From a virus, in IMG/VR virus record IMGVR_UViG_3300045988_143098: DNA of 59,008 bases, one strand, 5' to 3'. How positions within the stretch are numbered: position 1 is the first letter of the stretch; each line of letters opens with the position of its first letter. The notes below the pieces were generated by a model. That model did not search any database, was not told where the DNA came from, and was given only the letters and a program-made list of their open reading frames with translations. The position numbers and the translations under genes were made by a program. Shown here piece after piece: positions 3,922-30,755 of this stretch.

Positions 3922-3926
3922 TAAAA

Positions 3927-4234: not shown

Positions 4235-4250
4235 AAAAGTCGACAAAAAG

Positions 4251-4273: not shown

Positions 4274-4304
4274 GGGAACCTAATAAATTTAAGGAGGTAT
4301 TTCC

Positions 4305-4580
4305 ATGAGAAATACGGTTTTCTTGTACGGGTTCACAAACATGCATGAGATGCACGGATGCTACTTCATCTGCTGCGAAGAGCTCAGTATTCAGAGAATC
4401 AAGAGCATAGCGAAGCTCATCGTCACGGAATATCCTGACGTGAAGCGTGTCTATGCGATTGATAATCGGAGAGGGCTCCGCAGAGAGTTCTTGGAAGCTG
4501 TCACATCTAAGGTGTTTGTGGACCGATTCGTGTTCGAGGACACCTGTAAGACGGAAGGGTTGCTTGTCTTAGAAATCTAA
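4305..4580 (+). CDS. hypothetical protein (91 aa)
   Basis: AAGGAGG SD; no recognisable motifs. Confidence 0.7.
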   Translation: MRNTVFLYGFTNMHEMHGCYFICCEELSIQRIKSIAKLIVTEYPDVKRVYAIDNRRGLRREFLEAVTSKVFVDRFVFEDTCKTEGLLVLEI

Positions 4581-4647
4581 GTTCCAAAGCGGAGGAGGTT
4601 GACAAAGCCTCTTCTGTTTTCATTGATATTTGAAAGGAGACTCCAAA

Positions 4648-5007
4648 ATGCGATACCATTTTGAGCGCCCGGTTAAAACAACTTCCCAGCATGGCGAGAC
4701 ATACCTGTGCGACCATCCTGTTTACAGTAGATGCACATTGTATAAGCTCGGAAATCGTGGACTTGCAGTGATTCAGCAGCGATACATTCGAGCTAACAAG
4801 GCTACGATTTGGCGAGAAATCTACCCTTGGCTCACAGATTCTATTTACTATGCACCGGGGTTCAATGAGTTCTTCAACGAGCGTGCTGGCGAAGCCGTTG
4901 ATGGTATCTATCCCACAGTAACTGTGCGCCAATTGATGTGGGCGCTCAAAATGAAGCCGCTTGAAAAGGAAAGATGGGAAACAGTGTTCGACCGGCGTGA
5001 TATTTGA
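4648..5007 (+). CDS. hypothetical protein (119 aa)
   Basis: ATG 4648 after AAAGGAGA; in frame within track ORF 4630..5007. Confidence 0.75.
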   Translation: MRYHFERPVKTTSQHGETYLCDHPVYSRCTLYKLGNRGLAVIQQRYIRANKATIWREIYPWLTDSIYYAPGFNEFFNERAGEAVDGIYPTVTVRQLMWALKMKPLEKERWETVFDRRDI

Positions 5008-5020
5008 GGAGGCAGTATAT

Positions 5021-5410
5021 ATGAAATTTTTCGATTATAATCCTGATAATACCGCATGGTACATCTACATTGACTACGAAAAACGTACTCCCTACTACAT
5101 TGACAACAGCGGTGTAAACATTATTGTTTGTCGAGATTATAAGCATGTACTGGATTCATTTCTGGTCGCATCTCATGCTACTGAGGGGACATTTGTTGCT
5201 GATATTCCTGTGGACACTTTGGGCGTCAGAGTTGTATCCTGTTTGCGCGATTTGGAGCAGCTTCGCCCATATTTGGTTCGCATTCACATCGACCCCGTAG
5301 GCGTTGTTGAAAAGCGCAAGTCAATCAAAAACATCATTGATATTTTGGAAAGTTATAACTACAAAGTCGAAGTTTACAATTCCTATAATGGAGAACCCAT
5401 TACAATTTAA
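5021..5410 (+). CDS. hypothetical protein (129 aa)
   Basis: ATG 5021 after GAGGAGG; in frame within track ORF 4961..5410. Confidence 0.75.
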   Translation: MKFFDYNPDNTAWYIYIDYEKRTPYYIDNSGVNIIVCRDYKHVLDSFLVASHATEGTFVADIPVDTLGVRVVSCLRDLEQLRPYLVRIHIDPVGVVEKRKSIKNIIDILESYNYKVEVYNSYNGEPITI

Positions 5411-5422
5411 GGAGGCGTAATC

Positions 5423-5779
5423 ATGCGTATCTACGTTATCCCCGATGAGAACGAAACGAAGTTTCAGTCGTTCAAACGGAAGGCGAAGGAAAAGTTCGAC
5501 AATGGAATTGATGCGATTAAGCAGCACAAGGAGGAAATCATTGAGATTGCTCCGTTAGCTTTGGGCGCACTGGCTGTGACGGCAAAAGTCATTACAAAGT
5601 CCGTGCATCTGAAGCAGGAGCGTGATTTGAAAGACCGCTTTGTCTGGGACAATCATCTTGGGCATTATTGGAAAACCAAACGGAAACTTTCCAACAACGA
5701 ATGGCTGGAAGTGGAGCGTCGTAAGAAATTGGGCGAGGACATCGGAACCATTTTGCGTTCTATGAAACTGCTGAGGTAA
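5423..5779 (+). CDS. hypothetical membrane-associated protein (118 aa)
   Basis: AAGGAGG SD; IIEIAPLALGALAVTAKVI hydrophobic segment. Confidence 0.75.
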   Translation: MRIYVIPDENETKFQSFKRKAKEKFDNGIDAIKQHKEEIIEIAPLALGALAVTAKVITKSVHLKQERDLKDRFVWDNHLGHYWKTKRKLSNNEWLEVERRKKLGEDIGTILRSMKLLR

Positions 5780-5785
5780 CCCCAC

Positions 5786-5822
5786 ACGGAAGGTCGTTTA
5801 GTACAGCGACTTTTCCGTTTCT
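5786..5822 (+). terminator. probable intrinsic terminator
   Basis: CGGAAGGTCG-loop-CGACTTTTCCG (G-U pairs, one bulge) then TTT. Confidence 0.55.
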
Positions 5823-5831
5823 CCTAAAAAG

Positions 5832-5854
5832 TCGAAAATTGCAACTCTTATTAT
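5832..5854 (+). promoter_or_regulatory. Promoter-like motif copy E (TCGAAA-N11-TATTAT) plus hairpin 5858-5869
   Basis: AGTCGAAAATTGCAACTCTTATTATGAAAGAGGTTGCTCTTGAC. Confidence 0.6.
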
Positions 5855-5895
5855 GAAAGAGGTTGCTCTTGACAAAAATTTTAGGAGGAATGACT

Positions 5896-6024
5896 ATGTT
5901 GCTTTTGGATTTGTTTTTCTACGGTTTCTTGTTCTGTGTGTTTTGTTTGGTAATTAAAAGAGCCGTACAACTAACGTTCAGATTCATCAATAGCCTATTT
6001 GATAAGATTAATAACATGCTGTAA
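5896..6024 (+). CDS. 42-aa hydrophobic peptide (below ORF-track cutoff)
   Basis: ATG 5896 after TAGGAGG; MLLLDLFFYGFLFCVFCLVIKRAV...; own promoter and terminator. Confidence 0.6.
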   Translation: MLLLDLFFYGFLFCVFCLVIKRAVQLTFRFINSLFDKINNML

Positions 6025-6033
6025 TCTCACGAC

Positions 6034-6078
6034 AAAGGAATTGGCTGAAATTGCAATCAGCCTTTCCTTTTGCTTTTT
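6034..6078 (+). terminator. intrinsic terminator
   Basis: AAAGGAATTGGCTGA-loop-TCAGCCTTTCCTTT then T-rich run. Confidence 0.8.
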
Positions 6079-6102
6079 CAAAATAAAAGGAGGGCTCATT
6101 CT

Positions 6103-6315
6103 ATGGAATTTGGAAAGAAGCTCGGCTTAATCGGTGGCATGATTGGTGGAAACACTAAGAATCCGTCGATTCTGAAAGAGATTCTGGGTTCACCGGATGA
6201 CTTCAAAATCGAGGCATCAATCGAAGATGGCGAACTTGTCATTCGCGTTCGACGGAAAACAGTCGCCGTCACTCGGAGAAAAAAGAAAGTCGTCAGGCGC
6301 TTACCCGGTGCTTGA
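6103..6315 (+). CDS. hypothetical protein with basic C-terminus (70 aa)
   Basis: ATG 6103 after AAAGGAGGG; RRKTVAVTRRKKKVVRR tail. Confidence 0.65.
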   Translation: MEFGKKLGLIGGMIGGNTKNPSILKEILGSPDDFKIEASIEDGELVIRVRRKTVAVTRRKKKVVRRLPGA

Positions 6316-6341
6316 TTACTACACAACAAGGAGGTATTTCT

Positions 6342-7064
6342 ATGGATATTCTGGGGTTTCTGAAGAAAAATCGGGCGTTCATCGGAACTTGCGGAGGCAT
6401 TCTTGGCACAATCGGAACTGGAATTCTTGCCGCAAGAGCTGCTTTGCGTGCCGACAAAGAACTCAACGGCAACACGTTGTCCGATGGAAAGGAAAAACTG
6501 AGAGTCATCGCAAAACATGCAAGTCTTCCGATGCTGTCGTGTGTATTTACTTCCTTTTGTATTCTTGATGCGCATAACACGCATGTTAAATTCGAGAATA
6601 GTCTCATTTCAAGTGGCGTTGCGTTGTGCGGACTTCTTCAGCAAACACAGCATGAGAAACGCCTTAATGCACCAAGCGAGCTTCTTGAAGAAGGTGATGC
6701 CACTTCTCAGTATGCTCTATTCCGCGAAATAAACACCGGATTGATATTTAATGCATCGGTTGATGACGTACTCGCCGCATGTAGAGACTTGAATCGCGGC
6801 ATCTACATCAATGGTTCGTCTACGCTTGGCGAGTTCTTTGAGTTCCTGAACATTGATTACATTTCTAAGGATGCGAAGAAAGCTGAGCCTGATTGGGGAT
6901 GGACGCCGGGGTACTGCGAAGAGTATTACATTATGCCATACGTCGAATTCGAGTACAAAAAAGTAGAGTTAGCTGACGGACGTGTCGTCATTGATATTTG
7001 TCCGGTAATCCCGCCGATACCACCAGATATGCTGGATGCTTACGACTCTTTCGGCGGTGCGTAA
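6342..7064 (+). CDS. 2-TM hairpin membrane protein, paralogue family member 1
   Basis: ATG 6342 after AAGGAGG. Two N-terminal hydrophobic helices plus C-terminal TLGEFFEFLNI...WGW module, shared with 10220, 13155 and 14736 genes. Confidence 0.8.
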   Translation: MDILGFLKKNRAFIGTCGGILGTIGTGILAARAALRADKELNGNTLSDGKEKLRVIAKHASLPMLSCVFTSFCILDAHNTHVKFENSLISSGVALCGLLQQTQHEKRLNAPSELLEEGDATSQYALFREINTGLIFNASVDDVLAACRDLNRGIYINGSSTLGEFFEFLNIDYISKDAKKAEPDWGWTPGYCEEYYIMPYVEFEYKKVELADGRVVIDICPVIPPIPPDMLDAYDSFGGA

Positions 7065-7073
7065 TTAGCATTT

Positions 7074-7096
7074 GTCGAAAATTGCAAGTTGTATAA
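7074..7096 (+). promoter_or_regulatory. Promoter-like motif copy F (TCGAAA-N11-TATAAT) plus hairpin 7099-7111
   Basis: Nearly identical to copy B over about 65 nt up to the start codon. Confidence 0.65.
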
Positions 7097-7136
7097 TGAA
7101 GGGTATTACCCTATCAAATTTTAGGAGGATGTTGGT

Positions 7137-7392
7137 ATGTTAATTAAACAACTCATTGACCAGTCTGCTGCGGCTGCTAAGGAGCACTCGGAGATGTTCT
7201 TTCATGGGCGTTACACCAAATTCATAATGCTTTCGACTATTGCTGCTATCGGGCCCGGAACCCTGCTGCAAGTTGGTATCTTGAAAGTTCTTCAGATGGT
7301 TGACAGCTTGAGAGGGTGATCCGGAGAACTTAACAGTTTTGAGACTGGTTAGAATTGAAAATTCGTTGACTTCCGACTCAATTGATGAGTAA
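7137..7392 (+). pseudogene. small membrane protein of the cassette family, reading frame broken at 7317 (60 aa as written; +1 frame continues to 7392)
   Basis: TGA at 7317-7319. The +1 frame stays open to TAA 7390-7392, which sits in the same TAAACCCACG context as the stop of the 3615 gene, just before the conserved terminator. Confidence 0.5.
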
Positions 7393-7400
7393 ACCCACGG

Positions 7401-7434
7401 GGGAGGATGCTGATAACAAGGCATCTTCCCTTTT
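7401..7434 (+). terminator. intrinsic terminator, conserved cassette type
   Basis: GGGAGGATGC-TGATAACAAG-GCATCTTCCC then TTTT. Confidence 0.85.
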
Positions 7435-7463
7435 GTATTATTTAGAAGAAGAGGTGCCGTGCT

Positions 7464-7790
7464 TTGGAAAAGTATCAAACAAACCATATTTCAAATGATT
7501 TACATTGTCTTTGGAACGGCAACGTTAGAACCATTCTTAAACTACTTAGGATTAGCCGCGCAGATTTTGCTCGAATGCTTGGGGTAAGCGATAATACGGT
7601 AGGTATGATGTTCTACAGATGCGGCCATACGTTAACGCATATGCAATTTCATGCTACGATGTGGGTTTTGTTCCTCTCCATAATGGAAGCGGAACAGGGG
7701 TGTCAGAAGCGTTTTGATGCTAACACAGCTTTAGCGAAAGAGCTCTGGAAAGAGATTCACTCTTTTTATATGGAGCATGGGCTGAATTAA
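7464..7790 (+). CDS. HTH DNA-binding protein (XRE/Cro-like)
   Basis: 108 aa, TTG start uncertain; ISRADFARMLGVSDNTVGMMF helix-turn-helix. Confidence 0.6.
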   Translation: MEKYQTNHISNDLHCLWNGNVRTILKLLRISRADFARMLGVSDNTVGMMFYRCGHTLTHMQFHATMWVLFLSIMEAEQGCQKRFDANTALAKELWKEIHSFYMEHGLN

Positions 7791-7813
7791 TCGAAAATTG
7801 CAGCTCTTATTAT
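7791..7813 (+). promoter_or_regulatory. Promoter-like motif copy G (TCGAAA-N11-TATTAT)
   Basis: TCGAAAATTGCAGCTCTTATTATGAAGGAGG starts right after stop codon 7788-7790. Confidence 0.55.
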
Positions 7814-7829
7814 GAAGGAGGTGATTAAA

Positions 7830-7979
7830 TTGAAGAAGTCCCCGTGGAAGATTCTCGGTGTTGTTCTTACTATTGCTGGCGCGGCAGTCGGGCTTGCAGG
7901 CTCGTTTGTCAGCGATAAGCAGCAGGAAGAAAGCATCCAGAAAGCTGTTCAGGATGAAATCAAGAAACTTAACGCCTAA
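7830..7979 (+). CDS. 49-aa single-TM peptide (TTG start; not in ORF track in this frame)
   Basis: GAAGGAGGTG SD 8 nt before TTG 7830; LKKSPWKILGVVLTIAGAAVGLAGSFVSDKQQEE... Confidence 0.55.
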   Translation: MKKSPWKILGVVLTIAGAAVGLAGSFVSDKQQEESIQKAVQDEIKKLNA

Positions 7980-8041
7980 TGAAACTGGAAGAGGTCAATA
8001 CAAGTCCTCTTCCTTTCTTGTCAATCTGAAAGGAGAATCAA
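7962..8041 (+). repeat. ~80-nt module-junction repeat, copy 1 (gene end + terminator + SD)
   Basis: About 93 percent identical by eye to 8938-9017. Confidence 0.85.
7987..8019 (+). terminator. intrinsic terminator
   Basis: GGAAGAGG-loop-CCTCTTCC then TTTCTT. Confidence 0.8.
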
Positions 8042-8042
8042 G

Positions 8043-8435
8043 TTGGCTAACGAAACGAAGGGACGCAGCAGCGTAATTAAAAAAATTGAGGGCGTTCGTT
8101 TTCCGTCCGACGATGTCGTCCTGCAATACGTCCTGTGCACGGACGGAAAGTGTGGGAAGGAGCTCTGGGTTGATATTGCGGCGTTTAAGCGTGGCGTCCG
8201 CAAATTCGGCTACGGCTCGTGCGCGTTAGAGGCCGAAAAAGTTAAGCTGAGTCCCAAGCAGGAAGCGCGGGTGTCAGCGTATTTGCAAGAGTACGCCCGT
8301 TTCCGGGCGGCCGTGAAGGAGTACAAGGAGGCTTTGCGCATTGCAGAAGACGCAAAACGCAAGCTGGAAGCAGAGTGTCCCACATTTTGTGCGGACTATC
8401 GCTATATGCCGCTCAGTTCCAATGCGGAAATTTAA
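8043..8435 (+). CDS. hypothetical protein (130 aa)
   Basis: TTG start 8 nt after GAAAGGAG; Cys-containing N-half, coiled-coil C-half. Confidence 0.65.
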   Translation: MANETKGRSSVIKKIEGVRFPSDDVVLQYVLCTDGKCGKELWVDIAAFKRGVRKFGYGSCALEAEKVKLSPKQEARVSAYLQEYARFRAAVKEYKEALRIAEDAKRKLEAECPTFCADYRYMPLSSNAEI

Positions 8436-8447
8436 GGAGGACAAGTA

Positions 8448-8948
8448 ATGAGCAAGTATGAACTGACCCCGCAGACGAAGGAATTCGCTGGCACAATTCT
8501 GCACCGAATCCGTGCACTGGTTGATATTCCGGAGCATGGTGTGAGGGCAGGCGACGTGGGCGGATGGATTCAGTGCGAGGAGAATCTATCTCAGAAAGGC
8601 TCCGCGTGGATCTCCGACGAGGCGTTGGTGTTCGGTAACGCGCGAGTATACGGCGATGCTGTCATACTCGAACACGCCTTTGTATATGGCTCAGCGGAGG
8701 TGTTCGGTAATGCTTCCGTGTATGGATATGCGGAAGTTTTTGGTCATGCTCGTGTGTTCGGTAATGCAAAAATTTCCTGCGGGGCACAGGTGTACGACGA
8801 GGCTTGTGTATTTGGTAATGCGGAGGCGGCCGATTATGCAAATGTGTACGATAACGCACTTGTGTTTGGTGATACACGGATAACCGGGTTTGCAGACGTG
8901 CACGGCAATGTCGTACTGGGTTATCAAGCCAAGCAAAAAGAAACTTAA
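8448..8948 (+). CDS. hexapeptide-repeat (left-handed beta-helix) protein, paralogue 1
   Basis: 166 aa; at least 12 consecutive [VI]xGxAx hexads (VFGNAS VYGYAE VFGHAR VFGNAK ...). N-terminal ILHRIRAL..AGDVGGWIQCEENLS shared with the next gene. Confidence 0.8.
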   Translation: MSKYELTPQTKEFAGTILHRIRALVDIPEHGVRAGDVGGWIQCEENLSQKGSAWISDEALVFGNARVYGDAVILEHAFVYGSAEVFGNASVYGYAEVFGHARVFGNAKISCGAQVYDEACVFGNAEAADYANVYDNALVFGDTRITGFADVHGNVVLGYQAKQKET

Positions 8949-9017
8949 CGCCTAATGAAACTGGAAGAGGTCAATGCAAGGCCTCTTCCTTTCTTTTTCA
9001 ATCTGAAAGGGGAATCA
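8938..9017 (+). repeat. ~80-nt module-junction repeat, copy 2
   Basis: Matches 7962-8041; the upstream ORF stops in a different frame within it. Confidence 0.85.
8963..8998 (+). terminator. intrinsic terminator
   Basis: GGAAGAGG-loop-CCTCTTCC then TTTCTTTTT. Confidence 0.8.
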
Positions 9018-9019
9018 GA

Positions 9020-9847
9020 ATGAGTCAGAAGTATGAGATGACTGACGAAACAAAACTCGTAGAAGGTCGGATTCTGCATCGCATCAAAGCGTTGAGAGAC
9101 TTTGATGGAGGCTTTATAAAAGTTAAAGCTGGTGAACTCGGCGGATGGGTTCAGTGCGAGGAGAATCTTTCCCACGAAGGAACTGCATGGGTTTACGACG
9201 ATGCTTGCGTGATGGATTCGGGCAAAATTGTCAATTCAGCAAAGGTGTATGGCACTGCTACTGTGCGAGATAAAGCAGTAGTCGCGGGTACTGCCATAGT
9301 CTGTGAACATGCTCTCGTCCGTGACTCAGCTGTTGTCTTTGGGCACGCTCTTGTCCGCGGAAATGCCATTGTGGGCGGAACTTCTGGGATTTTCGGGAAC
9401 GCCCATGTCGACGGACATGCATATGTTCGCGGAGATGCCAAAATCTATGAAGATGCCGTTGTTACTGGCGACACAACGGTCATAACTGGCAGAGCTGCCG
9501 TAGGCGGTGCTACCCACATTGACGGTGGCATGGTTACCAAGAATATTTATATTTGCGGGGCTCCGGTACTTGTCGGCTCACAAATCTGCATTTTCGAGAA
9601 TGAGCATTATCTTGTTGTCGGCGGACACGCTCGTCTGGATATGTGCTTAACATTCGCCAGAACAAACGACTGTCGAATTCGATTGATTTCCAGTAATTAC
9701 ACAGGTGACATTGAAGATTACAAAATGTCGTTGGTAAACGCAGAACCGGCAGAAGTACGGCGCATCGACAATTATTATAAAAGTGCTATTGAGCTCGCCA
9801 AGAATTATATCACTGACACGATTTATATGAAGGAGGATGGAAAATGA
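9020..9847 (+). CDS. hexapeptide-repeat (left-handed beta-helix) protein, paralogue 2, with extra C-terminal domain
   Basis: 275 aa; ILHRIKAL..AGELGGWVQCEENLS then VYGTAT VRDKAV VAGTAI ... repeats. Confidence 0.8.
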   Translation: MSQKYEMTDETKLVEGRILHRIKALRDFDGGFIKVKAGELGGWVQCEENLSHEGTAWVYDDACVMDSGKIVNSAKVYGTATVRDKAVVAGTAIVCEHALVRDSAVVFGHALVRGNAIVGGTSGIFGNAHVDGHAYVRGDAKIYEDAVVTGDTTVITGRAAVGGATHIDGGMVTKNIYICGAPVLVGSQICIFENEHYLVVGGHARLDMCLTFARTNDCRIRLISSNYTGDIEDYKMSLVNAEPAEVRRIDNYYKSAIELAKNYITDTIYMKEDGK

Positions 9848-9921
9848 TATTTATCATCTGGGGAATCGTGACCGTGCTTCCCTTTGTGATTGAAATCATC
9901 CGAGAGAAGTTCCGAGTATGA
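9844..9921 (+). CDS. 25-aa hydrophobic micro-ORF coupled by ATGA overlaps on both sides
   Basis: MIFIIWGIVTVLPFVIEIIREKFRV; the start overlaps the stop of 9020..9847 and the stop overlaps the start of 9918..10223. Confidence 0.4.
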   Translation: MIFIIWGIVTVLPFVIEIIREKFRV

Positions 9922-10223
9922 ATCGGGATGAAGTTGTCACCATACTGAAGTATCAAAAGCATAGATATTTCCCTGCCCCACTTCCCCACTGGTCTCTTGA
10001 TGAAACAGAGAGACGGTTCTTCGTGAGAATTTCTATTGATATTTTGATTGAGCGACTTTCCGATGACGAAGACTGGATTAACTACAAAATCGTCATCAAT
10101 GACTTCATCAACGAGATTGACGATATGGCAAGCTCAAAAACTCAAAATTGGCGTGCATACGCGGAAACGCGAGACGCACTCAATGATATTCTATTAGATT
10201 TAGAAAGGATGGAATTGCAATGA
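9918..10223 (+). CDS. hypothetical protein (101 aa)
   Basis: Track ORF, translationally coupled to neighbours. Confidence 0.7.
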   Translation: MNRDEVVTILKYQKHRYFPAPLPHWSLDETERRFFVRISIDILIERLSDDEDWINYKIVINDFINEIDDMASSKTQNWRAYAETRDALNDILLDLERMELQ

Positions 10224-10987
10224 AAAACGAACTGATTACGGCAACGAAGAACGTCGCCTCTGCTTTGGCGCGTCACAAGCCTCGAATCCTCCTATGGGCG
10301 GGTGTCGGCGGCTTGTTGTCTGCAGGCATTTGGGGCGTGACCGCTACTCCTGCCGCTCAGAAAGCCATTGCAAATAAGAAAAAGGAGGTTAAGCACGAAA
10401 AGCTCACTCCGGTTGAAACCATTGATGCCGTCTGGAAATGCTACGCAGGTCCCGTTGCTCTGAGTATGATTTCCGTCGCGGGAATTGCTATGGGTGACCG
10501 AGCATTAGACAAACAGCAGAAGGCTTTGATGGCGGCGTATTCTATAAGTGAAGCGGCTTTGAGCACCTATCAGGCGAAGACCCTTGAGGTCGTGGGCGAA
10601 GAAAAGGAACAAGATATTCGCGATGCCGTAGTTCACGCTAAGGGAGAGGACGCTAAGAAGCTCCTTCAGAACGAGCAGATTGTTTACACAGGTAAAGGCG
10701 ATACGCTCTGCTATGATGCAGTGACCGGGCGCTTGTTTATGTCAAGTGTTGATGTCATTCGGCAGGCCGTCCACAAGATTAACGACAGACTGTACGGCGA
10801 CATGTGCGTCAGTCTGAATGATTTCTATGACGAAATCAATTTGGGACGGGTTGAAGTTGGCGATATGCTTGGATGGAATATCGACAAGGGTTTCATTCAG
10901 ATGGATTTGGGCAGTCATCTGGTTGACGACAAACCTGTAGTCACGATTGACTACAAGGTGTATCCGAATTACGACCATTTCGCATAA
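10220..10987 (+). CDS. 2-TM hairpin membrane protein, paralogue family member 2
   Basis: ILLWAGVGGLLSAGIWGV and GPVALSMISVAGIAMG helices; KALMAAYS motif; C-terminal SLNDFYDEINLG...GW. Confidence 0.85.
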   Translation: MKNELITATKNVASALARHKPRILLWAGVGGLLSAGIWGVTATPAAQKAIANKKKEVKHEKLTPVETIDAVWKCYAGPVALSMISVAGIAMGDRALDKQQKALMAAYSISEAALSTYQAKTLEVVGEEKEQDIRDAVVHAKGEDAKKLLQNEQIVYTGKGDTLCYDAVTGRLFMSSVDVIRQAVHKINDRLYGDMCVSLNDFYDEINLGRVEVGDMLGWNIDKGFIQMDLGSHLVDDKPVVTIDYKVYPNYDHFA

Positions 10988-11009
10988 AATGAAAGGCGGT
11001 GCTGTAGAC

Positions 11010-11543
11010 ATGCCCGATAATAAAAAAGTCACTGTTCAGAACGAAGTAAAAATCGAGCAGAAGGGCGTTAAAAACGAAATTCTGTTCTCGATTAAAGAAC
11101 TGATTGTCCAGATTATCCAGAATACCATTGCCCCGGCTCTGCAAGATATGGGCTACAATGCATTCGACCAAGTCTCCCGGACGCTTTTTCATCAGGGAGT
11201 GAACCGGAATAACCGAAGCAGCAACGGCACCTATAACTACAGCAAAGCGTGGAACAACGCTCAGCAGGGAAATGCGGTGTTTGTCGGAGACAAGTTTTCA
11301 ATTGATAACATTGTCTTTCAAACACGCGGCGACGCAGAAAGTACACTGCGTGGTCTCCAAAACATTCTGAACTCTGATGGAGTTGTTCGAGTCTCTGCTC
11401 TGTATGAAATGATTGGCCAGTCTAACGTAAGCTACACCTGTAACTCATATGGATGGACGAATCTCAACGGAGTGCGTGTTATGCGTACTGTAAGCGGCGG
11501 GTGGATTATTCAGTTGCCTGACCCGATGCCGCTGAAGTATTGA
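11010..11543 (+). CDS. hypothetical protein (177 aa)
   Basis: ATG 11010 after GAAAGG; in frame within track ORF 10947..11543. Confidence 0.7.
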   Translation: MPDNKKVTVQNEVKIEQKGVKNEILFSIKELIVQIIQNTIAPALQDMGYNAFDQVSRTLFHQGVNRNNRSSNGTYNYSKAWNNAQQGNAVFVGDKFSIDNIVFQTRGDAESTLRGLQNILNSDGVVRVSALYEMIGQSNVSYTCNSYGWTNLNGVRVMRTVSGGWIIQLPDPMPLKY

Positions 11544-11565
11544 ACGAAAGGAGGATTATCGTATC

Positions 11566-11814
11566 GTGGAGCCAAGAGAAATGTTTAGCACTGACGTTTC
11601 CAACGATGAAGTAAATCATCCGAAGCATTACCAAAGTGGAGGTCTTGAGACCATTGACGTTATTAGTGCCTTCACTCAAGACTGCACTCCAATTGAGGCT
11701 TTCTGCATCGGGAATGCTCTTAAGTACCTTTGCCGTTGGAAAAAGAAGAACGGTATCGAGGACTTGAAGAAGGCACAATGGTACATCAATTATCTCATCG
11801 AATCTAAGAGGTGA
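11566..11814 (+). CDS. DUF3310-like phage protein
   Basis: HPKHYQSGGLETIDVI...GNALKYLCRWKKKNGIEDLKKAQWYINYL matches the HPxHY...GNxxKYxxR...DLxKAxxY pattern (memory). Confidence 0.7.
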   Translation: MEPREMFSTDVSNDEVNHPKHYQSGGLETIDVISAFTQDCTPIEAFCIGNALKYLCRWKKKNGIEDLKKAQWYINYLIESKR

Positions 11815-11818
11815 TAAA

Positions 11819-12451
11819 ATGAATATCCTTCCGAAAATCCGCACAATCTCTACTTTTTATCAATATGTTCGGAAATTAGAGAGAACCGGGCTTGATAAGT
11901 TATCAATTGCAGAAATTTGCGGATGCAAAGATCCCGCCATCGGCATTCAACTTTTGTATGATATGTCTTTAGCCGCTGTCGACGTAATTAAGGCGTTTGA
12001 CGACGAGGGAATACACGAATTGAAGCCGGACATGTTTTATCATTTTCTTGCGATGGAAGATTTTAAGTATAGTCCGGAAGTGTTACAAAAAGCACTCGAT
12101 TATGCCGAAAACTGTACAGAGCGGATTAAAACTTACATTGTTAATCAGGAGGGTCACGATGAAACTTTCAGATACAATGCAATTTTCATCAAGGAAAATG
12201 ATGGTCGCTACTCTGCCCTTTTCCCTGATTTCGACTGTGCAACGTGCGGTGACAGTCTTTCTCACGCGAACAGAATGGCTCAAGAGTGTTTGACACTCCA
12301 AATACGCACAATGCAGGATGAACAGCACACGCTTCCTGAGCCCTCTGAGCAGACTCCTGAACTGCTTAAAAAGACTTGTCTGGGCGTCGACGCTGACCCA
12401 GACTCCGCCTTTTGGGGTTCGATTGTAGTGAATGTTAAAAAATCCTTTTGA
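11819..12451 (+). CDS. two-domain protein: N-terminal domain paralogous to next gene + C-terminal HicB-like antitoxin fold
   Basis: C-half FRYNAIFIKENDGRYSALFPDFDCATCGDSLSHANRMAQECLTLQI...HTLPEPSE fits the HicB/UPF0150 pattern; no HicA-like gene nearby. Confidence 0.7.
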   Translation: MNILPKIRTISTFYQYVRKLERTGLDKLSIAEICGCKDPAIGIQLLYDMSLAAVDVIKAFDDEGIHELKPDMFYHFLAMEDFKYSPEVLQKALDYAENCTERIKTYIVNQEGHDETFRYNAIFIKENDGRYSALFPDFDCATCGDSLSHANRMAQECLTLQIRTMQDEQHTLPEPSEQTPELLKKTCLGVDADPDSAFWGSIVVNVKKSF

Positions 12452-12464
12452 GAGGAGCTCCAGT

Positions 12465-12920
12465 ATGGATATGCTTCAGAAAATTTACACGGTCTCTACC
12501 TTTTGTCAATATGCTCGGAGATTAGAGAGAATAGGACTCGACGAGGCATCAATCGCAGAAATTTGTGGATGTGAAGACCATATTGTTTTAGCAAGCCTCT
12601 GGGAGCTGTCCTTGGGAATCAAAGAGATGTTTCTTTCTAAGTTATCTAATGCGTTATATATGGCCGGGAAATCGGAGGATGACATCACCTATGATTTGAA
12701 ATTGTGCCGGTCAACCGTCCATATGTTTCTTCATCAGGATACACGTCATACTTGTGAGGTTGTTGAGGCGTTTTACCAATACGGTAGACGGATACACAAA
12801 TTTGATACATTTTATCACGATACGAAAAAGTTTGGTGATGTGCTTGACGAAGCTGTGAACTCTACAAAGCGTATCAAGGAATACGTTGTCAAAGAGGGAT
12901 TGGAGGGAGATTTGCAATGA
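12465..12920 (+). CDS. hypothetical protein, paralogue of N-domain of 11819..12451
   Basis: IYTVSTFCQYARRLERIGLDEASIAEICGCED vs IRTISTFYQYVRKLERTGLDKLSIAEICGCKD. Confidence 0.7.
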   Translation: MDMLQKIYTVSTFCQYARRLERIGLDEASIAEICGCEDHIVLASLWELSLGIKEMFLSKLSNALYMAGKSEDDITYDLKLCRSTVHMFLHQDTRHTCEVVEAFYQYGRRIHKFDTFYHDTKKFGDVLDEAVNSTKRIKEYVVKEGLEGDLQ

Positions 12921-13138
12921 AACTTAAAGATTTGTTTTCCGTCCTCACAGGTAACGAATTGATTGACGTATCCATTGAAGATGAACCGCGTTACCGCTTC
13001 GATTTTTGGTGCCACTGCTGGAAGAGGATATTGAATCCGGAACTTCTTGACTATGAGGTCACCGAAATACACACATCCCTTCGTAATGATAATCCAATGC
13101 TTGTTGTATGGATTAAAGCTCAGAACAGCGATAATTAA
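12917..13138 (+). CDS. hypothetical protein (73 aa)
   Basis: ATGA-coupled start; GGAGGGAG SD. Confidence 0.65.
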   Translation: MKLKDLFSVLTGNELIDVSIEDEPRYRFDFWCHCWKRILNPELLDYEVTEIHTSLRNDNPMLVVWIKAQNSDN

Positions 13139-13154
13139 AAAGGAGGATATTTCT

Positions 13155-14081
13155 ATGAACGCTATTACTAAAATGTGCAACAATGTTATCTTCGCTATGA
13201 AGCGAAACGCCCCCGCCATCCTTCTCTGGGTGGGTATCGGAACCGGTGCTGCTTGTGTCGGCAAGGCTTGCTACGACACAGCAAAGAAGACTGTCCCTCT
13301 CCTTACCAAGGCTAAGAATGATATTTCCGAAGTCAAGGCTTCTGTCACCGAGGAGACCCTTGCTGACGCGAAGAAAAAGCAGATGGATATTTGTCTTCGC
13401 ACAGCTGGGAAACTTGGTCTGATTTACATGCCCTCTGCCGCTCTCGGTCTGGTTTCCGTTGCCAGTCTGATTACTTCTCATAACATCGCTCATAAGCGTA
13501 TTCTTGGTCTCTCAGCGGCGTATGCGGCACTGGACAGCACTTTCAATACTTATCGCAATGGGGTGATTGATAAGTATGGCGAGACTGAGGATTACGAGCT
13601 TTTCAACGGTATCAAGACCGAGACCATCGAAAAAGATGTAACGGATGATGAAGACAACACCTATACCGTTACTGAAGAGAAGAAGGTAGTCACGGTCAAC
13701 CCAGAAACAAACATCTATACCCGTTTCTTCGACCGTGGAAATCCCGATTGGGACGATGACCCTGATATTCGGCGGCTGTTTCTGGAAGCAAAGGAACGCA
13801 CAGCTAACATGATGCTCGAAAATCGCGGTTATCTTCTGTTAAACGACGTCTACAAACTTCTCGGATACCCAGCAACCCGCGCTGGATATTCTGTTGGCTG
13901 GCTTCGCAATGACGACGAGAACCCGAATCATCATGGCTATGTCAGCTTTGGATGGAAAGATATTTCTGACAGTTATTCCCGCGCACTTTTGAATGGCTAT
14001 GAGGAATGTGTCATCTTGAACTTCAACGTTGAAGGCCCGATTCTCGACAAGGCTGTCAAGTATCGACTTCTCGGTGCTTGA
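13155..14081 (+). CDS. 2-TM hairpin membrane protein, paralogue family member 3
   Basis: ATG 13155 after AGGAGG; APAILLWVGIGTGAACVG and LIYMPSAALGLVSVASLI helices; LSAAYA motif; LLNDVYKLLGYP...GW. Confidence 0.85.
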   Translation: MNAITKMCNNVIFAMKRNAPAILLWVGIGTGAACVGKACYDTAKKTVPLLTKAKNDISEVKASVTEETLADAKKKQMDICLRTAGKLGLIYMPSAALGLVSVASLITSHNIAHKRILGLSAAYAALDSTFNTYRNGVIDKYGETEDYELFNGIKTETIEKDVTDDEDNTYTVTEEKKVVTVNPETNIYTRFFDRGNPDWDDDPDIRRLFLEAKERTANMMLENRGYLLLNDVYKLLGYPATRAGYSVGWLRNDDENPNHHGYVSFGWKDISDSYSRALLNGYEECVILNFNVEGPILDKAVKYRLLGA

Positions 14082-14105
14082 TATTTTCCATATTTTCCAT
14101 CAAAG

Positions 14106-14128
14106 TCGAAAAAAACAAACCGTATTAT
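14106..14128 (+). promoter_or_regulatory. Promoter-like motif copy H (TCGAAA-N11-TATTAT) plus hairpin 14131-14142
   Basis: AGTCGAAAAAAACAAACCGTATTATGAAGGGGAAACCCTATCAATAAATTTTAGGAGG. Confidence 0.6.
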
Positions 14129-26476: not shown

Positions 26477-26499
26477 TCGAAAATCGCAAGTCCTCTTAT
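26477..26499 (+). promoter_or_regulatory. Promoter-like motif copy I (TCGAAA-N11-TCTTAT) in front of the nuclease/RNA-polymerase operon
   Basis: AGTCGAAAATCGCAAGTCCTCTTATGAGGAG. Confidence 0.55.
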
Positions 26500-26561: not shown

Positions 26562-26888
26562 ATGGCATTACTTGAGCGCGATTTCCAAGCAACTATCGTT
26601 CGCGAACTGCAATCTCGCTTTCCCGGATGTATCGTTTGCAAGATGGATGCGAATTACAAGCAAGGATTTCCTGATATTTTGGTGCTGTATCGTGACAAGT
26701 GGGCTCTTCTCGAATTGAAGCGTTCTGGTAGCGCTCGACATCAGCCAAATCAAGATTACTATGTGAACTTGCTTAACGAAATGTCTTATGCCAACTTTAT
26801 ATTTCCAGAAAATAAGGAGAGTGTATTTGATGACTTACAACGAACATTCAAAATTGGCAGGCACTCATGCTTTGTTGAGCGCGAGTAA
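26562..26888 (+). CDS. VRR-NUC / PD-(D/E)xK-type nuclease
   Basis: GFPDILVLYRDKWALLELKR = PD...E-x-K core. Confidence 0.65.
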   Translation: MALLERDFQATIVRELQSRFPGCIVCKMDANYKQGFPDILVLYRDKWALLELKRSGSARHQPNQDYYVNLLNEMSYANFIFPENKESVFDDLQRTFKIGRHSCFVERE

Positions 26889-27456
26889 ATACTACTGGCT
26901 GAACTATTCTGACGAAGATATTCAGCGCGCCTACATTAGCAGCTACAGTCAGCGGATAGGAACTCTAATTCACGAACTCGCCGCATCTCTGATTAAGCAT
27001 AGAATCCGGGTCAACAAAACGGATAAACATTTACTTCTTCATCATCTTCTCGCAAATGATGTTCCAGAGTGCGCGTTTAATGTTGACCAATATTTTCAGA
27101 ACTTTGCTTCCTACGTTAATGATGCAATTCAGTACGATATGACACCAGAAGTGACGCTGGTCTACTCAGCATCGTGCTATGGGACAGCAGATGCTATTGC
27201 TTTTGATGGCTCAAAGTTGCGCATCCATGACCTGAAGACCGGCATTACGCAGGCTCACATGGAGCAGCTTCTAATTTATGCAGCGCTGTTCTGCTTGGAA
27301 TACGATATTGACCCTGAAGAGACACATGTCGAGTTGCGTCTTTACCAGTCCAATGACGTCACCGTCGAACTACCTAAAGTAGATGACGTTGTTCTTGTGA
27401 TGGAAAAAATCACCCACGCCTCTGAAATCGTTGATGGAATAAAGGAGAGTAGATGA
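26830..27456 (+). CDS. RecB/Cas4-like PD-(D/E)xK exonuclease (DUF2800-like)
   Basis: THALLSASKYYW N-terminus; ADAIAFDGSKLRIHDLKTG...QLLIYA core; ATG 26830 after AAGGAGAG. Confidence 0.6.
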   Translation: MTYNEHSKLAGTHALLSASKYYWLNYSDEDIQRAYISSYSQRIGTLIHELAASLIKHRIRVNKTDKHLLLHHLLANDVPECAFNVDQYFQNFASYVNDAIQYDMTPEVTLVYSASCYGTADAIAFDGSKLRIHDLKTGITQAHMEQLLIYAALFCLEYDIDPEETHVELRLYQSNDVTVELPKVDDVVLVMEKITHASEIVDGIKESR

Positions 27457-27457
27457 T

Positions 27458-30247
27458 ATGAACCGTGTTAAGAATGATATTTTGATGCACTACGGACGGA
27501 GTGTCGACGACGGTGCTCCCGGTCCGGGTTCTGGTCGTTATCCAAAGGGTTCGGGAGAAGACCCAAATCAACATAGCATCAATTTCGCAGAGCGTGTTCA
27601 AGAACTGAAAAAAAGCGGCATGGACGAAAAAGACATTGCGAAAGCAGTCGGATGTAAAAGCACAACTGAACTTCGGTCTCTGTATAAAATCTCCATCAAT
27701 GATAAGCGTTCTCGACTTGTGGACCGTGCGATGGCACTGAAGGCAGATGGTAAAACTCGTTCGGAAATAGCAAGACTGATGGGCGTTGCCCCTTCTACAG
27801 TTGATTCCTATCTGAATGCTGATGCAGCAGCTCGTTCTGATAAAGCTAAAGTTGTTGCTGAATACATCAAGAAACAAGTCGATGAAAAGGGAATGGTTGA
27901 CGTCGGAAAAGGTACAGAAATATATTTGGGGATTTCTGAACCGAAATTGGGGGAAGCGCTCCAGCGTTTGAAGCTGGAAGGTTATATCATAGAAAAGCGC
28001 AGCGTCCCTCAGGGAGGCGTTGATAGTGCACATTCTACTACGATGCTAATAGCCTGCCGCCCTGACGATTACGACAAAACGAAAAAATACAATGACCCGA
28101 CCGCAATCAAAACCCTTGATATTGTTAGAGTTCGAGAGGACGAAAACGGGAATGACTTTATCACAAAGCCTTTTGAGTATCCGGCATCTATGGATTCCAG
28201 CCGTTTAGCGATTCGGTATGCCGAGGATGGTGGTAAAGAGAAAGACGGTGTTGTGGAAATTCGGCGTGGTCTTAAAGACCTAAATCTCGGCAATTCCAAT
28301 TATGCACAAGTCCGTATTCTCGTGGACGGAAATAGGTATATTAAAGGCATGTGCATGTACAGCGATGACCTGCCTGATGGAGTAGATTGTTTATTCAACA
28401 CGAATAAGTCGAAGGACGTCCCGAAACTTGAAGTATTGAAAGCAATCAAAAATGACCCAACTAATCCTTTTGGTGCGAATCTTCGTGAAGAGGGTGGGCA
28501 ATCCTACTACACGGGCGACGATGGGAAGCAACATCTCAACTTGATCAATAAAACAAGGGTTGAAGGCGACTGGGGTGCTTGGGAAGATAGCCTTAGTTCC
28601 CAATTCTTAAGTAAGCAACCCGTCAAGTTAATTAAACAGCAGCTCGATGCCGCTTTGGAAAATAAAAAGCAAGAATATAATGATATTCTTGCTCTTGAAT
28701 GTATTCCTGTCAAGCGAGCTCTACTCGAAGAATTCGCTGACTCGTGCTCTTCGGATTCCGTCGAACTCAAAGGTGCTGCTCTTCCGAGACAAAGATGGAA
28801 CGTAATATTGCCAGTGCCAACTCTAACCGATAACGAAGTGTACGCTCCGAATTTCAAGGATGGGGAAACTCTGGCTTTAATTCGATACCCTCACGCAGGA
28901 CAGTTTGAAATCGTTATTGCCAAGAATAACACAAAGCACTCTGATGGCGCACGATTGATTGGGAAAACCCCTGCTGATGCCATCGGAATTAGTCCCCATT
29001 CCGCCGAGAAACTATCTGGTGCTGACTTTGACGGCGATACTGTACTTGTAATCCCCTGTAATTCGCCAGACAACAAAGTGAAAATTCACGCAAAAGACTC
29101 TCTTCGTGGTCTTGAAGGATTCGACCCTAAGATGGAATACCCTGAGAGACCCGGCATGAAATACATGAAGCGCACTGAAATTGTTCGTGTAAAACAGAAG
29201 GATGGTTCTTATCGTGAATTTGAGAAGGAGATTAATCATACTGGCAAAGAAATGGGCATGATTTCCAATCTGATTACCGATATGACATTGAAGGGTGCCT
29301 CCGATGATGAATTAGCACGCGCAGTTAGACATAGCATGGTGGTAATTGACGCAGCAAAGCACAAGTTGGACTATGAACGGTCATTTCGAGACAACAGAAT
29401 TGCTGAGCTGAAGAAAAAATACCAAGGTCATTATACTGAAGACGGACGTTATAGCGAAGGTGCATCCACTTTGATTTCGAGGGCAAGTGCCGAAGCAACC
29501 ATACGAAAGCGAAAAGGAGCGCCGAAGACGGACCCCGAGACTGGCGACCAGATTTATAAGACTGACGATGAGTTTTATTACGACAAAAAGGGCAATAAAC
29601 ACTATCGTCAGGAAAAAACAACCCAAATGCAGACTGTCAAGGATGCCCATGCACTATCTACCGGACGGCAGGTAGAAGAGATATATGCCAACTATGCTAA
29701 TGCGTTGAAAGATATGGAACGTACAGCACGTTTGGAATTACTACATCCAATGAAATTGTGGCATGATAGTCAAGCTAAAAAAGAATATTCTGACGAAGTT
29801 CAATCACTTAAACGAAAACTAAACGATGCAAAAATGAATGCCCCGATTGAACGTCAGGCACAGCTTGCGGCCGCTGCAGTTGTAAAGGGTGCAGAATTAG
29901 ATAATCCGTTTATGTCCAAAGCTGAGAAAAAGAAGATGGGACAGAGAGCATTGAGTGCCGCTCGTCGTCGACTTGGCGCGCATCGTAGGCAGATTGATAT
30001 TACTGATAGAGAGTGGGAAGCCATCCAACGAGGTGCTATCAGTGACAATACGTTTCAAGAAATTTATAGGTTCTGCAATAAAGATGATGTTCGAGAACGT
30101 TCGACTCCTAAATCTCGCCGTATTTTGACGACAGCGCAGGAAGCCAAGATTCGCTCGATGAAGAACAGTGGTAAAACTACAGCCCAGATTGCTGATGCTC
30201 TTGGAGTTTCTGTCTCGACGGTCTCGAAAGTCATCAGCGGAAACTAA
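27458..30247 (+). CDS. single-polypeptide two-barrel RNA polymerase (YonO / cellular-RdRP-like) with N- and C-terminal HTH modules
   Basis: 929 aa. aa 280-322 SNYAQVRILVDGNRYIKGM...DLPDG...TNKSK. aa 472-531 LALIRYPH...AIGISPHSAEKLSGADFDGDTVLVIP (DFDGD = nt 29024-29038). aa 600-636 GMISNLITD...LARAVRHSMVVIDAAKHK. HTHs at aa 96-120 and 905-927. Confidence 0.7.
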   Translation: MNRVKNDILMHYGRSVDDGAPGPGSGRYPKGSGEDPNQHSINFAERVQELKKSGMDEKDIAKAVGCKSTTELRSLYKISINDKRSRLVDRAMALKADGKTRSEIARLMGVAPSTVDSYLNADAAARSDKAKVVAEYIKKQVDEKGMVDVGKGTEIYLGISEPKLGEALQRLKLEGYIIEKRSVPQGGVDSAHSTTMLIACRPDDYDKTKKYNDPTAIKTLDIVRVREDENGNDFITKPFEYPASMDSSRLAIRYAEDGGKEKDGVVEIRRGLKDLNLGNSNYAQVRILVDGNRYIKGMCMYSDDLPDGVDCLFNTNKSKDVPKLEVLKAIKNDPTNPFGANLREEGGQSYYTGDDGKQHLNLINKTRVEGDWGAWEDSLSSQFLSKQPVKLIKQQLDAALENKKQEYNDILALECIPVKRALLEEFADSCSSDSVELKGAALPRQRWNVILPVPTLTDNEVYAPNFKDGETLALIRYPHAGQFEIVIAKNNTKHSDGARLIGKTPADAIGISPHSAEKLSGADFDGDTVLVIPCNSPDNKVKIHAKDSLRGLEGFDPKMEYPERPGMKYMKRTEIVRVKQKDGSYREFEKEINHTGKEMGMISNLITDMTLKGASDDELARAVRHSMVVIDAAKHKLDYERSFRDNRIAELKKKYQGHYTEDGRYSEGASTLISRASAEATIRKRKGAPKTDPETGDQIYKTDDEFYYDKKGNKHYRQEKTTQMQTVKDAHALSTGRQVEEIYANYANALKDMERTARLELLHPMKLWHDSQAKKEYSDEVQSLKRKLNDAKMNAPIERQAQLAAAAVVKGAELDNPFMSKAEKKKMGQRALSAARRRLGAHRRQIDITDREWEAIQRGAISDNTFQEIYRFCNKDDVRERSTPKSRRILTTAQEAKIRSMKNSGKTTAQIADALGVSVSTVSKVISGN

Positions 30248-30271: not shown

Positions 30272-30520
30272 TTGAGCGGAACTTACGATGTAGCGCTTAC
30301 AACGGTCGATAATCCGTACAATCCGTTCACTCACCCGAACGAATGGTACATGTATGACATGACTCATGGCTATGATACTTGTGGCTACATCGACAGAATC
30401 ACAGTTTTCACGCCACAAATGACTGATGAAGAGGTTGACGAAGAAATTATTCGTGCTATAAACGTCATTCTGAAGAATGACTACGGGGATTTCTACAAAA
30501 AAGTCTACCGTAATGAATAA
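30272..30520 (+). CDS. hypothetical small phage protein (82 aa, TTG start)
   Basis: AAGGAG SD 5 nt before TTG 30272. Confidence 0.6.
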   Translation: MSGTYDVALTTVDNPYNPFTHPNEWYMYDMTHGYDTCGYIDRITVFTPQMTDEEVDEEIIRAINVILKNDYGDFYKKVYRNE

Positions 30521-30528: not shown

Positions 30529-30561
30529 GGGAGGGGGTCTCCGAAAAACACACCCCCTCCC
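30529..30561 (+). other. GC-rich perfect 10-bp hairpin (GGGAGGGGGT / ACCCCCTCCC), followed by the most GC-rich tract in this intergenic region
   Basis: Seen directly; followed by CGCATCGCCCGCC, no T run. Confidence 0.7.
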
Positions 30562-30617
30562 CGCATCGCCCGCCTCTTCAAAAATTCTCCGGGGGAGAGT
30601 TTTCTGGAAACAAAATT

Positions 30618-30737
30618 GGGCGGATTTCGGGCATGGCGGTGAGCTTATGAGATATTTTCAGTGTTCTTTATGCCGATTCTCCTTTCAGCATGTGAAAAAG
30701 TATCTCATAAGTTCACTTCCATGCCCGATTTCTGCCC
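30618..30737 (+). repeat. 120-nt imperfect inverted repeat (43-nt arms, ~33-nt loop) upstream of the packaging module
   Basis: GGGCGGATTTCGGGCATGGCGGTGAGCTTATGAGATATTTT pairs with AAAAGTATCTCATAAGTTCACTTCCATGCCCGATTTCTGCCC; four of the seven non-Watson-Crick positions are G-U on the + strand. Confidence 0.75.
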
Positions 30738-30755
30738 ACGTTCAGGGAGAAACCA

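Follow-up and report, generated by a model that had tools for sequence, protein, structure and literature searches.

A predicted single-chain two-barrel RNA polymerase flanked by helix-turn-helix modules in a phage family, with a candidate promoter class and a putative cos end beside its gene

A standing question is how minimal two-barrel RNA polymerases (RNAPs) locate promoters with no help from sigma or TFIIB-type factors. It is raised by one gene in a 59,008-nucleotide (nt) stretch of viral DNA, IMG/VR record IMGVR_UViG_3300045988_143098, which is called the window here. The open reading frame (ORF) at 27458..30247 on the + strand starts with ATG and encodes a protein of 929 amino acids (aa). 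A preliminary description, made from the sequence alone, had read this protein as a two-barrel RNAP related to YonO and fused to sigma-like helix-turn-helix (HTH) modules; span, strand and length of the ORF were as described there. The protein belongs to PHROG 4291, a natural fusion of a catalytic core and DNA-binding modules, which matched it from end to end (phrog_4291, E=0, 1055 bits; aa 3-927 aligned to positions 6-906 of the 909 in the profile).

The fold of the protein was assessed with AlphaFold models. A model of the core only, covering aa 262-770, reached a predicted local distance difference test score (pLDDT) of 92.7 and a predicted template modelling score (pTM) of 0.85; the pLDDT of the full-length model was 76. 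Foldseek comparison of the core model with the Protein Data Bank (PDB) gave 23 matches at E<=1e-3, and the best 50 listed were two-barrel RNAPs throughout. These included QDE-1 (E=4.1e-8, 450-570 aligned columns), the non-virion RNAP gp62 of Thermus phage P74-26 (E=7.3e-8, TMq 0.40) and RDR2 (E=9e-6, TMq 0.43), while beta-prime subunits and Rpb1 gave weaker matches than these three. With the full-length model, plant RDR2 ranked at the top, followed by 36 chains of the beta-prime/Rpb1 type, and viral entries named as RNA-dependent RNA polymerase (RdRP) matched at E=1e-7 to 2e-4. Sequence searches of the PDB, with the single protein as well as with the family profile, returned HTH matches only and no polymerases, so that the structure comparison was needed. 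By fold and family, the modelled gene product is almost certainly a single-chain two-barrel RNAP. This bears out the identity first proposed, for which modelling and a Foldseek search had been named beforehand as the check.

The two-barrel superfamily is marked by a DxDxD/DxDGD triad in the beta-prime-like barrel and by two basic residues from the beta-like barrel; in the RdRP/YonO-like clade, the beta-like barrel is devoid of the sandwich-barrel hybrid motif (SBHM) 'flap' insert (PMC7824862). In the core model, the first double-psi beta-barrel (beta-like, DPBB-B, aa ~280-368, 28295..28561) is built of strands 282-289, 293-301, 311-313, 348-352 and 358-368, and its only ~85-90 residues leave little room for an SBHM insert. 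R286 and K296, both on strands of this barrel, are the candidate basic pair and parallel R266 and K271-G272 of YonO. The second barrel (beta-prime-like, DPBB-A, aa ~446-533, 28793..29056), likewise delimited by modelled strands, contains R476-x-P478-H479 and the catalytic loop with the DFDGD triad D523, D525 and D527 (aa 523-527), whose codons are located at 29024..29038 as originally noted. It is followed by a bridge-helix-like helical pair (aa ~595-656, 29240..29425) with the motifs MGxxSNLITDM and IDAxKH, modelled as helices 595-611 and 616-635. The peptides from which the polymerase had been recognized (S280...K322, L472...P533 and G600...K636) are all present at the residues given for them.

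Invariance was scored across 104 family representatives that are pairwise <50% identical. Invariant residues were Q284, R286, K296 and G297 in the first barrel, R476, P478, H479, D523, D525, G526 and D527 in the second, and M599, G600, N604, L605, D608, M609, D631, K634 and H635 in the helices after the catalytic barrel. Since the active-site residues are invariant in all of these representatives, the motifs are far beyond chance. According to the model, the second barrel supplies the predicted metal site D523-x-D525-G-D527, and both barrels form one active site. The PHROG 4291 protein is very probably a catalytically active RNAP.

HTH modules were found by Pfam above cut-offs at both ends of the protein. 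The N-terminal helical region (aa ~43-144, 27584..27889) contains two modules: one matched HTH_7 (aa 88-121), Sigma70_r4_2 (aa 96-119) and HTH_3 (aa 93-143), and an additional HTH-like helix pair at aa ~43-76 was indicated by phrog_664, which covers aa 43-129 in two stretches, and by modelled helices. The C-terminal module (aa ~886-928, 30113..30241) matched HTH_38 (aa 886-928), HTH_23 (aa 902-926) and GerE (aa 892-923). The modules, at aa ~88-121, ~886-928 and ~43-76, lie where they had been placed. Their designation as sigma-like holds in a generic HTH sense: Sigma70_r4_2 scored 38.1 bits, above its cut-off, but HTH_23, HTH_38, HTH_7, HTH_3 and GerE matched the same residues equally well or better. 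It does not hold for sigma-70 proper, since no match to sigma region 2 was found in the window protein by Pfam.

The N-terminal peptide (aa 1-41, 27458..27580, HYG...SGRYPxGSGExPxQH), with G13, S25, G26, R27, G31 and G33 invariant among the representatives and a pLDDT <40, is almost invariant across the family although disorder is predicted for it, and it is a candidate for a role in interaction or targeting. It had been likened to a leader on head-module cargo proteins. Searches by regular expression and blastp-short found no second copy in other ORFs of the window, and the peptide matched no PHROG except 4291. A shared cargo signal was therefore rejected, and the argument for packaging that had been built on the leader fails.

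The family is large. By tblastn, 250 phage records were obtained, 249 of which align over >=80% of the protein with 35-44% identity. Their hosts include Arthrobacter (95 records), Gordonia (55), Streptomyces (54) and Lactococcus (13), along with Faecalibacterium (phage FP_oengus), and gut siphoviruses are also among them. The nearest isolate is 44% identical to the window protein; metagenomic relatives are up to 99% or 81% identical. Large protein collections hold at least 8,000 clusters at 90% identity and 1,160 clusters at 50% identity (E<=1e-30), of which the top 150 are full length without exception. The names of the records are discordant: 'HTH DNA-binding domain protein', 'RNA-dependent RNA polymerase', 'putative RNA polymerase' (as for gp55 of FP_oengus) and 'structural protein'. 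Koert and co-workers have described, computationally, a protein with HTHs at both ends, DxDGD and motifs of YonO and crAss-like polymerases, with 95.7% in HHpred to Pfam RdRP, and put it forward as a signature gene for an actinophage supercluster together with Lactococcus and Faecalibacterium phages; promoters, cos adjacency or virion association are not mentioned there (bioRxiv 10.1101/842583). The family of HTH-flanked two-barrel polymerases is thus already known computationally, and the window gene adds a member. What goes beyond that description is a candidate promoter class that crosses host phyla, a precise map of the predicted cos site beside the gene and a hint at virion association.

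The promoter class emerged from a repeat, TCGAAA-N11-TATWAT, that had already been noticed in the window. The repeat is real: six exact copies are present where 0.01 are expected, and 11 copies with at most one mismatch all lie on the + strand. Ten of these, 23 nt each, are spread over the early region (183..14128, at 0.2-14 kb) with starts at 183, 3059, 3553, 3927, 4251, 5367, 5832, 7075, 7791 and 14106. One further copy, TCGAAAATCGCAAGTCCTCTTAT (26477..26499, +), precedes the operon of the polymerase gene, and every copy is located 30-45 nt before a ribosome binding site and start codon. A canonical sigma-70 promoter was considered for these copies and rejected. The TCGAAA box is separated from the -10-like box by 11 nt, not 17, and TTGACA was not found at 16-18 nt from the -10-like box in any copy, whereas TTGACA-17-TATAAT is seen in seven of the seven early promoters that are annotated in the lactococcal phage sk1.

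Related early repeats of 30-70 nt were found in isolates of the family, and within each phage the conservation extends over 30-45 contiguous nt. Phage 1706 of Lactococcus has nine copies of TCGCATGTTTTACATATAC-TATAGT (locus L086, 18400-30150), RavenPuff of Streptomyces six copies of TCGCACGTTTTACGTGCTT-TATAGT (L085, 22700-27000) and Circum of Arthrobacter eight copies of TCGCGTAAATTACACGGGG-TATAAT (L087, 16600-23250). The Lactococcus and Streptomyces versions have TCGCA[TC]GTTTTAC[AG]T...TATAGT in common. RavenPuff and the loci L039, L075 and L080 have a counterpart of the window's operon copy ~1 kb upstream of the RNAP gene. Genome-wide dyad counting in RavenPuff found nothing, and the motif emerged from intergenic gaps and a repeat search. 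The yonN-yonK gap of SPbeta contained no convincing related motif, and promoters are not mentioned in the Arthrobacter phage paper. With the strict pattern TCG-N6-8-[AG]C[AG]-N5-TAT[AT][AG]T, 34 sense matches were counted against one antisense match in 1.4 Mb, and shuffled sequences gave 0-0.1 matches per genome. Sense matches numbered eight in the window, six in Circum, two in RavenPuff, one in 1706 and 17 in 1.16 Mb of related contigs, with no antisense match in any of these; the IMG/VR loci cover 10 kb on either side of the polymerase gene, so that early regions are mostly outside. There was no match on either strand in the SPbeta region scanned, in sk1 or in phiC31.

On this sequence evidence, the motif belongs to a putative promoter class, TCG-N6-8-[AG]C[AG]-N5-TATA[AG]T, which is devoid of a -35 box and conserved across host phyla, in family phages of Lactococcus, Streptomyces, Arthrobacter and gut hosts. 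Among the hosts are a Firmicute of 35% GC and an actinomycete of 72% GC. Because the upstream element is common to phages of hosts so different in GC content, it is unlikely to be a substitute for a host -35 box. We infer that it points to a conserved phage factor, for which the HTH-bearing polymerase would be the obvious candidate. The motif is a credible target of the polymerase, and the chances that the enzyme in fact recognizes it appear evenly balanced. In the window, a palindrome (GAAGGGTATTACCCTATC; AGGGTA/TACCCT) lies directly past the -10-like box at 3576-3593, 3950-3967, 7098-7115 and 14129-14146. It may fold into a stem-loop at the 5' end of the transcript or serve as an operator; the RavenPuff copies carry GAGACCCCTAC at this place.

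Downstream of the polymerase gene, the preliminary description had pointed to a structured region at 30521-30755 as another possible target of the enzyme. The region 30515-30760 is indeed strongly structured (minimum free energy -113 kcal/mol, z = -8.9). However, several lines of evidence identify it as the predicted genome terminus. A GC-rich hairpin, GGGGAGGGGGTC...ACACCCCCTCC, occurs once in the window (30529-30562), and 63 of 80 related loci (L003-L082) have it too. Of 48 related viral contigs that include all 10 kb of the upstream flank, 22 stop <600 nt past the polymerase gene, and at least 17 contigs end 3-9 nt past the hairpin in ...CAT. In locus L024, the Illumina adapter AGATCGGAAGAGC is fused just past the hairpin, which marks a genuine DNA end. 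As a separate observation, untrimmed adapters stand at the ends of two publicly available IMG/VR contigs: the Illumina adapter within the last 30 nt of L024 and the Nextera adapter CTGTCTCTTATACACATCT within the last ~40 nt of L038. In phage ReqiPepy6 (L084, 6180-6243), the 3' cos overhang CGCCGCCCT is annotated after the same hairpin and GCAT, and the window sequence at 30563-30575 is GCAT|CGCCCGCCT. The junction is preserved in 45 relatives that read through it.

These contig ends, the adapter junction and the annotated overhang of ReqiPepy6 led us to interpret the structured region as cos and to reject an N4-like hairpin promoter or a non-coding RNA; no Rfam family matched there. Of the earlier proposal, the strong structure stands, and its role as a polymerase target does not, since the region comprises a cos terminus and a structured left end. 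The predicted cos site (30529..30575, +) consists of the hairpin, GCAT and a 9-nt GC-rich 3' overhang (30567-30575), and to judge from the sequences compared it is conserved across host phyla, including the right end of 1706 (L083). The true genome ends are placed near 30566/30567. As positions 1-84 of the window equal 58925-59008, this 84-nt terminal repeat indicates a circular assembly of a ~58.9-kb genome that was opened at an arbitrary point. The left end begins with a structured non-coding region (30576..30755, +) with a short palindrome and an almost perfect hairpin of ~120 nt at 30617-30735, before the first gene of the left arm (phrog_4259); in most relatives, too, the 230 nt at the left end are strongly structured (median z = -5.35). 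The left-end hairpin could be involved in terminase binding or could be a late promoter or an origin.

The polymerase gene ends ~0.3 kb from the cos end on the right arm of the window, and in every isolate with determined ends no large gene follows it before the right end, which is 320-570 nt away. It is preceded by genes for a VRR-Nuc-type endonuclease (26562..26888, +, phrog_93) and an exonuclease (26788..27456, +, phrog_3953), its upstream operon partners. It is always followed by a conserved 82-aa ORF (30272..30520, +, phrog_4303), the last gene before cos, with the orthologs orf76 of 1706, gp107 of ReqiPepy6, gp59 of RavenPuff and gp99 of Circum. Synteny with FP_oengus, RavenPuff, Circum and 1706 covers the order primase-polymerase, helicase, VRR-Nuc, exonuclease, polymerase and ~80-aa ORF, and the order VRR-Nuc, exonuclease, polymerase is kept in FP_oengus, RavenPuff and Circum. 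The primase-polymerase fusion of the window (17646-21659, 1337 aa, phrog_4210, E=0) equals gp28 of FP_oengus in length and forms with the polymerase a shared conserved backbone.

A hint at virion association comes from phage 1706. Its ortholog ORF75 (35% identity over the full length) is annotated 'structural protein', and a note in the ReqiPepy6 record repeats this label. In 1706 the label is attached to orf11, 12, 13, 17, 20, 21, 62, 71 and 75, while neighbouring ORFs are 'unknown' or 'putative ...'; such selective use is the pattern expected of experimental identification. Virions of 1706 were reportedly analysed by Garneau and co-workers in 2008 by sodium dodecyl sulphate-polyacrylamide gel electrophoresis and liquid chromatography-tandem mass spectrometry. 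Delivery of the polymerase with the virion, for which the ORF75 annotation speaks independently of the leader peptide, is possible, although we lean slightly against it.

Taken together, we propose that the enzyme, DNA-templated like YonO, would transcribe phage genes without a sigma factor. The fused HTH modules, two N-terminal and one C-terminal, would provide promoter recognition, and the target would be the class TCG-N6-8-[AG]C[AG]-N5-TATA[AG]T before the early genes and the operon of the polymerase itself. The polymerase would then be brought along within the virion, or at the DNA end that enters, and start early transcription. These steps do not deserve equal confidence. That the protein is a DNA-templated phage transcriptase is probable from the comparisons made, and we slightly favour an enzyme that is active as a phage transcriptase and reads this promoter class. 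The complete picture, a self-sufficient one-polypeptide machine delivered by the virion at the first-entering cos end and reading TCGC-N8-ACA-N5-TATA[AG]T across phages of Firmicutes and Actinobacteria, is tentative, and we would sooner expect part of it to fail.

Several observations weigh against the proposal. The TATAAT of the -10-like box is also recognized by host primary sigma factors and actinobacterial promoters often have no -35 box, so that the motif could be a host promoter combined with an operator. In the window copies, TCG is 2 nt nearer to the -10 box than in 1706, RavenPuff and Circum; the strict pattern gave no sense and one antisense match in FP_oengus (8.6-51 kb), and no copy of the class was found before late genes. 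The similarity to recognized polymerase families is low at the sequence level: Pfam RdRP (PF05183) scored 16.2 bits (E=0.0045) at the catalytic loop of the window protein, below its gathering cut-off of 23.8 bits, and hhalign against the YonO alignment found the right barrel (RxPH...DxDGD) with weak E-values of 0.055 and 0.015. Of ten diverse relatives, four matched Pfam RdRP at E<0.01 and one passed the cut-off with 25.4 bits, always on profile positions ~426-556 (427-559 in the window protein). Concerning the virion, the support from ORF75 is an annotation, and two small ORFs of 1706 outside the structural module carry the same label, so that co-purification is possible; in the window the polymerase gene stands at the end of a replication/nuclease block behind an early-class promoter copy and outside the virion module. 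Finally, we found no biochemical study of any PHROG 4291 member in the literature.

A fairly unlikely alternative is a late polymerase in the style of YonO, which transcribes the late operon of SPbeta from one start site (PMC5467207). Host RNAP would then read TCG...TATAAT as -10-dominated promoters, maybe with an upstream phage regulator, and the phage enzyme would be a middle protein, processive on the late structural genes from a point near or across the joined cos. The -10 box does equal the sigma-70 consensus, on the circularised genome the gene is placed directly upstream of cos and the late genes, and without the motif before late genes another promoter type must exist. Yet no conserved late promoter was found, and the right-end hairpin and cos separate the polymerase operon from the late genes. 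The upstream element is moreover common to Lactococcus and Streptomyces phages, TTGACA is absent, unlike in sk1, and conservation over such long contiguous stretches within each phage resembles that of phage-polymerase promoters.

The closest solved folds, QDE-1 and RDR2, are cellular RdRPs, and the gene stands within a replication/nuclease block, which would suit an RNA-templated polymerase or a synthase of primers or small RNAs that amplifies or makes regulatory or anti-defence RNAs instead of serving as the phage transcriptase. We consider this very unlikely. YonO, of the same clade, is DNA-dependent (PMC5467207), QDE-1 uses DNA templates too, as PDB titles indicate, and three HTH modules of the sequence-specific type together with a genome-wide motif fit promoter recognition on double-stranded DNA (dsDNA). 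Since a dedicated primase-polymerase is present in the window, priming is not needed from the two-barrel enzyme. The name 'RNA-dependent RNA polymerase' in RefSeq and PHROG derives from the Pfam label, not from experiment, and is probably a misnomer, just as 'HTH DNA-binding domain protein' is an under-annotation. Still harder to credit is a DNA-end or packaging protein whose HTHs bind the cos-proximal hairpin in the manner of a small terminase or to protect the end, with polymerase activity secondary or lost. It would account for the constant position of the gene beside the cos end and the conserved hairpin, for the 'structural protein' label in 1706, and for the weak match of aa 777-923 (29786-30226) to 'terminase small subunit' phrog_309 (E=1.4e-5), seen likewise in two relatives; moreover, RavenPuff and 1706 have no annotated small terminase. 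However, the phrog_309 similarity is probably due to the HTH alone, hairpin binding is conjectural, and the metal triad and other active-site motifs, invariant in a family of ~1,160 clusters, indicate selection for catalysis.

If the proposed self-sufficient, virion-delivered machine were real, common siphoviruses would run their early transcription independently of host RNAP. The family is abundant, with ~1,160 clusters at 50% identity and 250 sequenced isolates, many of them easily grown SEA-PHAGES phages and some from the human gut. A candidate promoter that crosses phyla and an exact map of the predicted cos site make factor-independent promoter recognition directly testable, and the current database names for PHROG 4291 are inadequate.

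Among known systems, gp55 of FP_oengus and the actinophage members of PHROG 4291 are closest. They share with the window protein the HTHs at both ends, DxDGD and the N-terminal peptide, and with the window the order VRR-Nuc, exonuclease, polymerase, small ORF and genome end; the identity is 42-55%, and the window protein differs in sequence divergence only.

YonO is an experimentally proven DNA-dependent RNAP whose promoter recognition was left unresolved by the authors (PMC5467207). Like the window protein it is a single chain in which the beta-like barrel precedes the beta-prime-like barrel, and the motifs (F/Q)xVR...KG, RxPH, DxDGD, G..SN.IT and ID.AK, invariant in the YonO family, are collinear in both. 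The motifs of the helical pair have the counterparts IGEISNNITK and IDYAK. Both hhalign, with a YonO alignment of 43 sequences, and hmmsearch aligned the second barrel with LRSPH...FDNDGD of YonO. However, phrog_8308, with YonO as its founding member (E=0), was matched by the window protein only partially (E=4.3e-7, aa 452-798), and direct BLASTP between the two proteins was not significant. Membership in the YonO family was rejected, as neither BLASTP nor hhalign was significant, though the catalytic barrel was repeatedly aligned. The comparison with YonO drawn in the preliminary description therefore stands as regards clade and collinear motifs, but PHROG 4291 is a distinct sister family. 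YonO is devoid of a Pfam match, of the N-terminal peptide and, as already noted, of HTHs, which the window protein has at both ends. Conversely, the YonO family has invariant C-terminal cysteines (C799, C802, C816 and C819) that are not present in the window protein; these four residues suggest a zinc ribbon (yonO: SPbeta locus L002, 21356-23875).

QDE-1 of Neurospora and RDR2 of plants are the top structural matches to the core (TMq up to 0.43), but with 11-14% identity. Both are RNA-silencing enzymes of eukaryotes that have no HTH modules, and their main template is RNA, as opposed to the dsDNA expected for the window phage. Multisubunit RNAP with sigma has the same two-barrel core in five subunits instead of one chain. 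The window HTH passes the cut-off of Sigma70_r4_2, a sigma region 4 profile, but fits many generic HTH families equally well, and the window motif has no -35 box at sigma spacing. N4 gp50, with a T7-like fold, and phi14:2 gp66, a two-barrel enzyme from a crAss-like phage, offer a possible functional analogy, namely a polymerase delivered with the DNA for phage-specific early promoters. For PHROG 4291 the analogy draws on the label of the 1706 ortholog and on early promoters of apparently non-host type. Their genes, however, lie in the virion module and the window polymerase gene in a non-structural operon; crAss-like proteins are marginal structural matches to the window protein, and N4 promoters are hairpins, while the hairpin region of the window is assigned to cos. 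The second-best structural match, gp62 of Thermus phage P74-26 (rmsd 7.8 over 426 columns), has 12% identity and ~590 aa, and its solved chain has no fused HTH modules. A Thermus phage with such an enzyme also has a separate virion RNAP fused to the tape measure. P23-45 gp64/P74-26 gp62 (PDB 8F5M) is a single-chain two-barrel phage RNAP that recognizes its own promoter motif.

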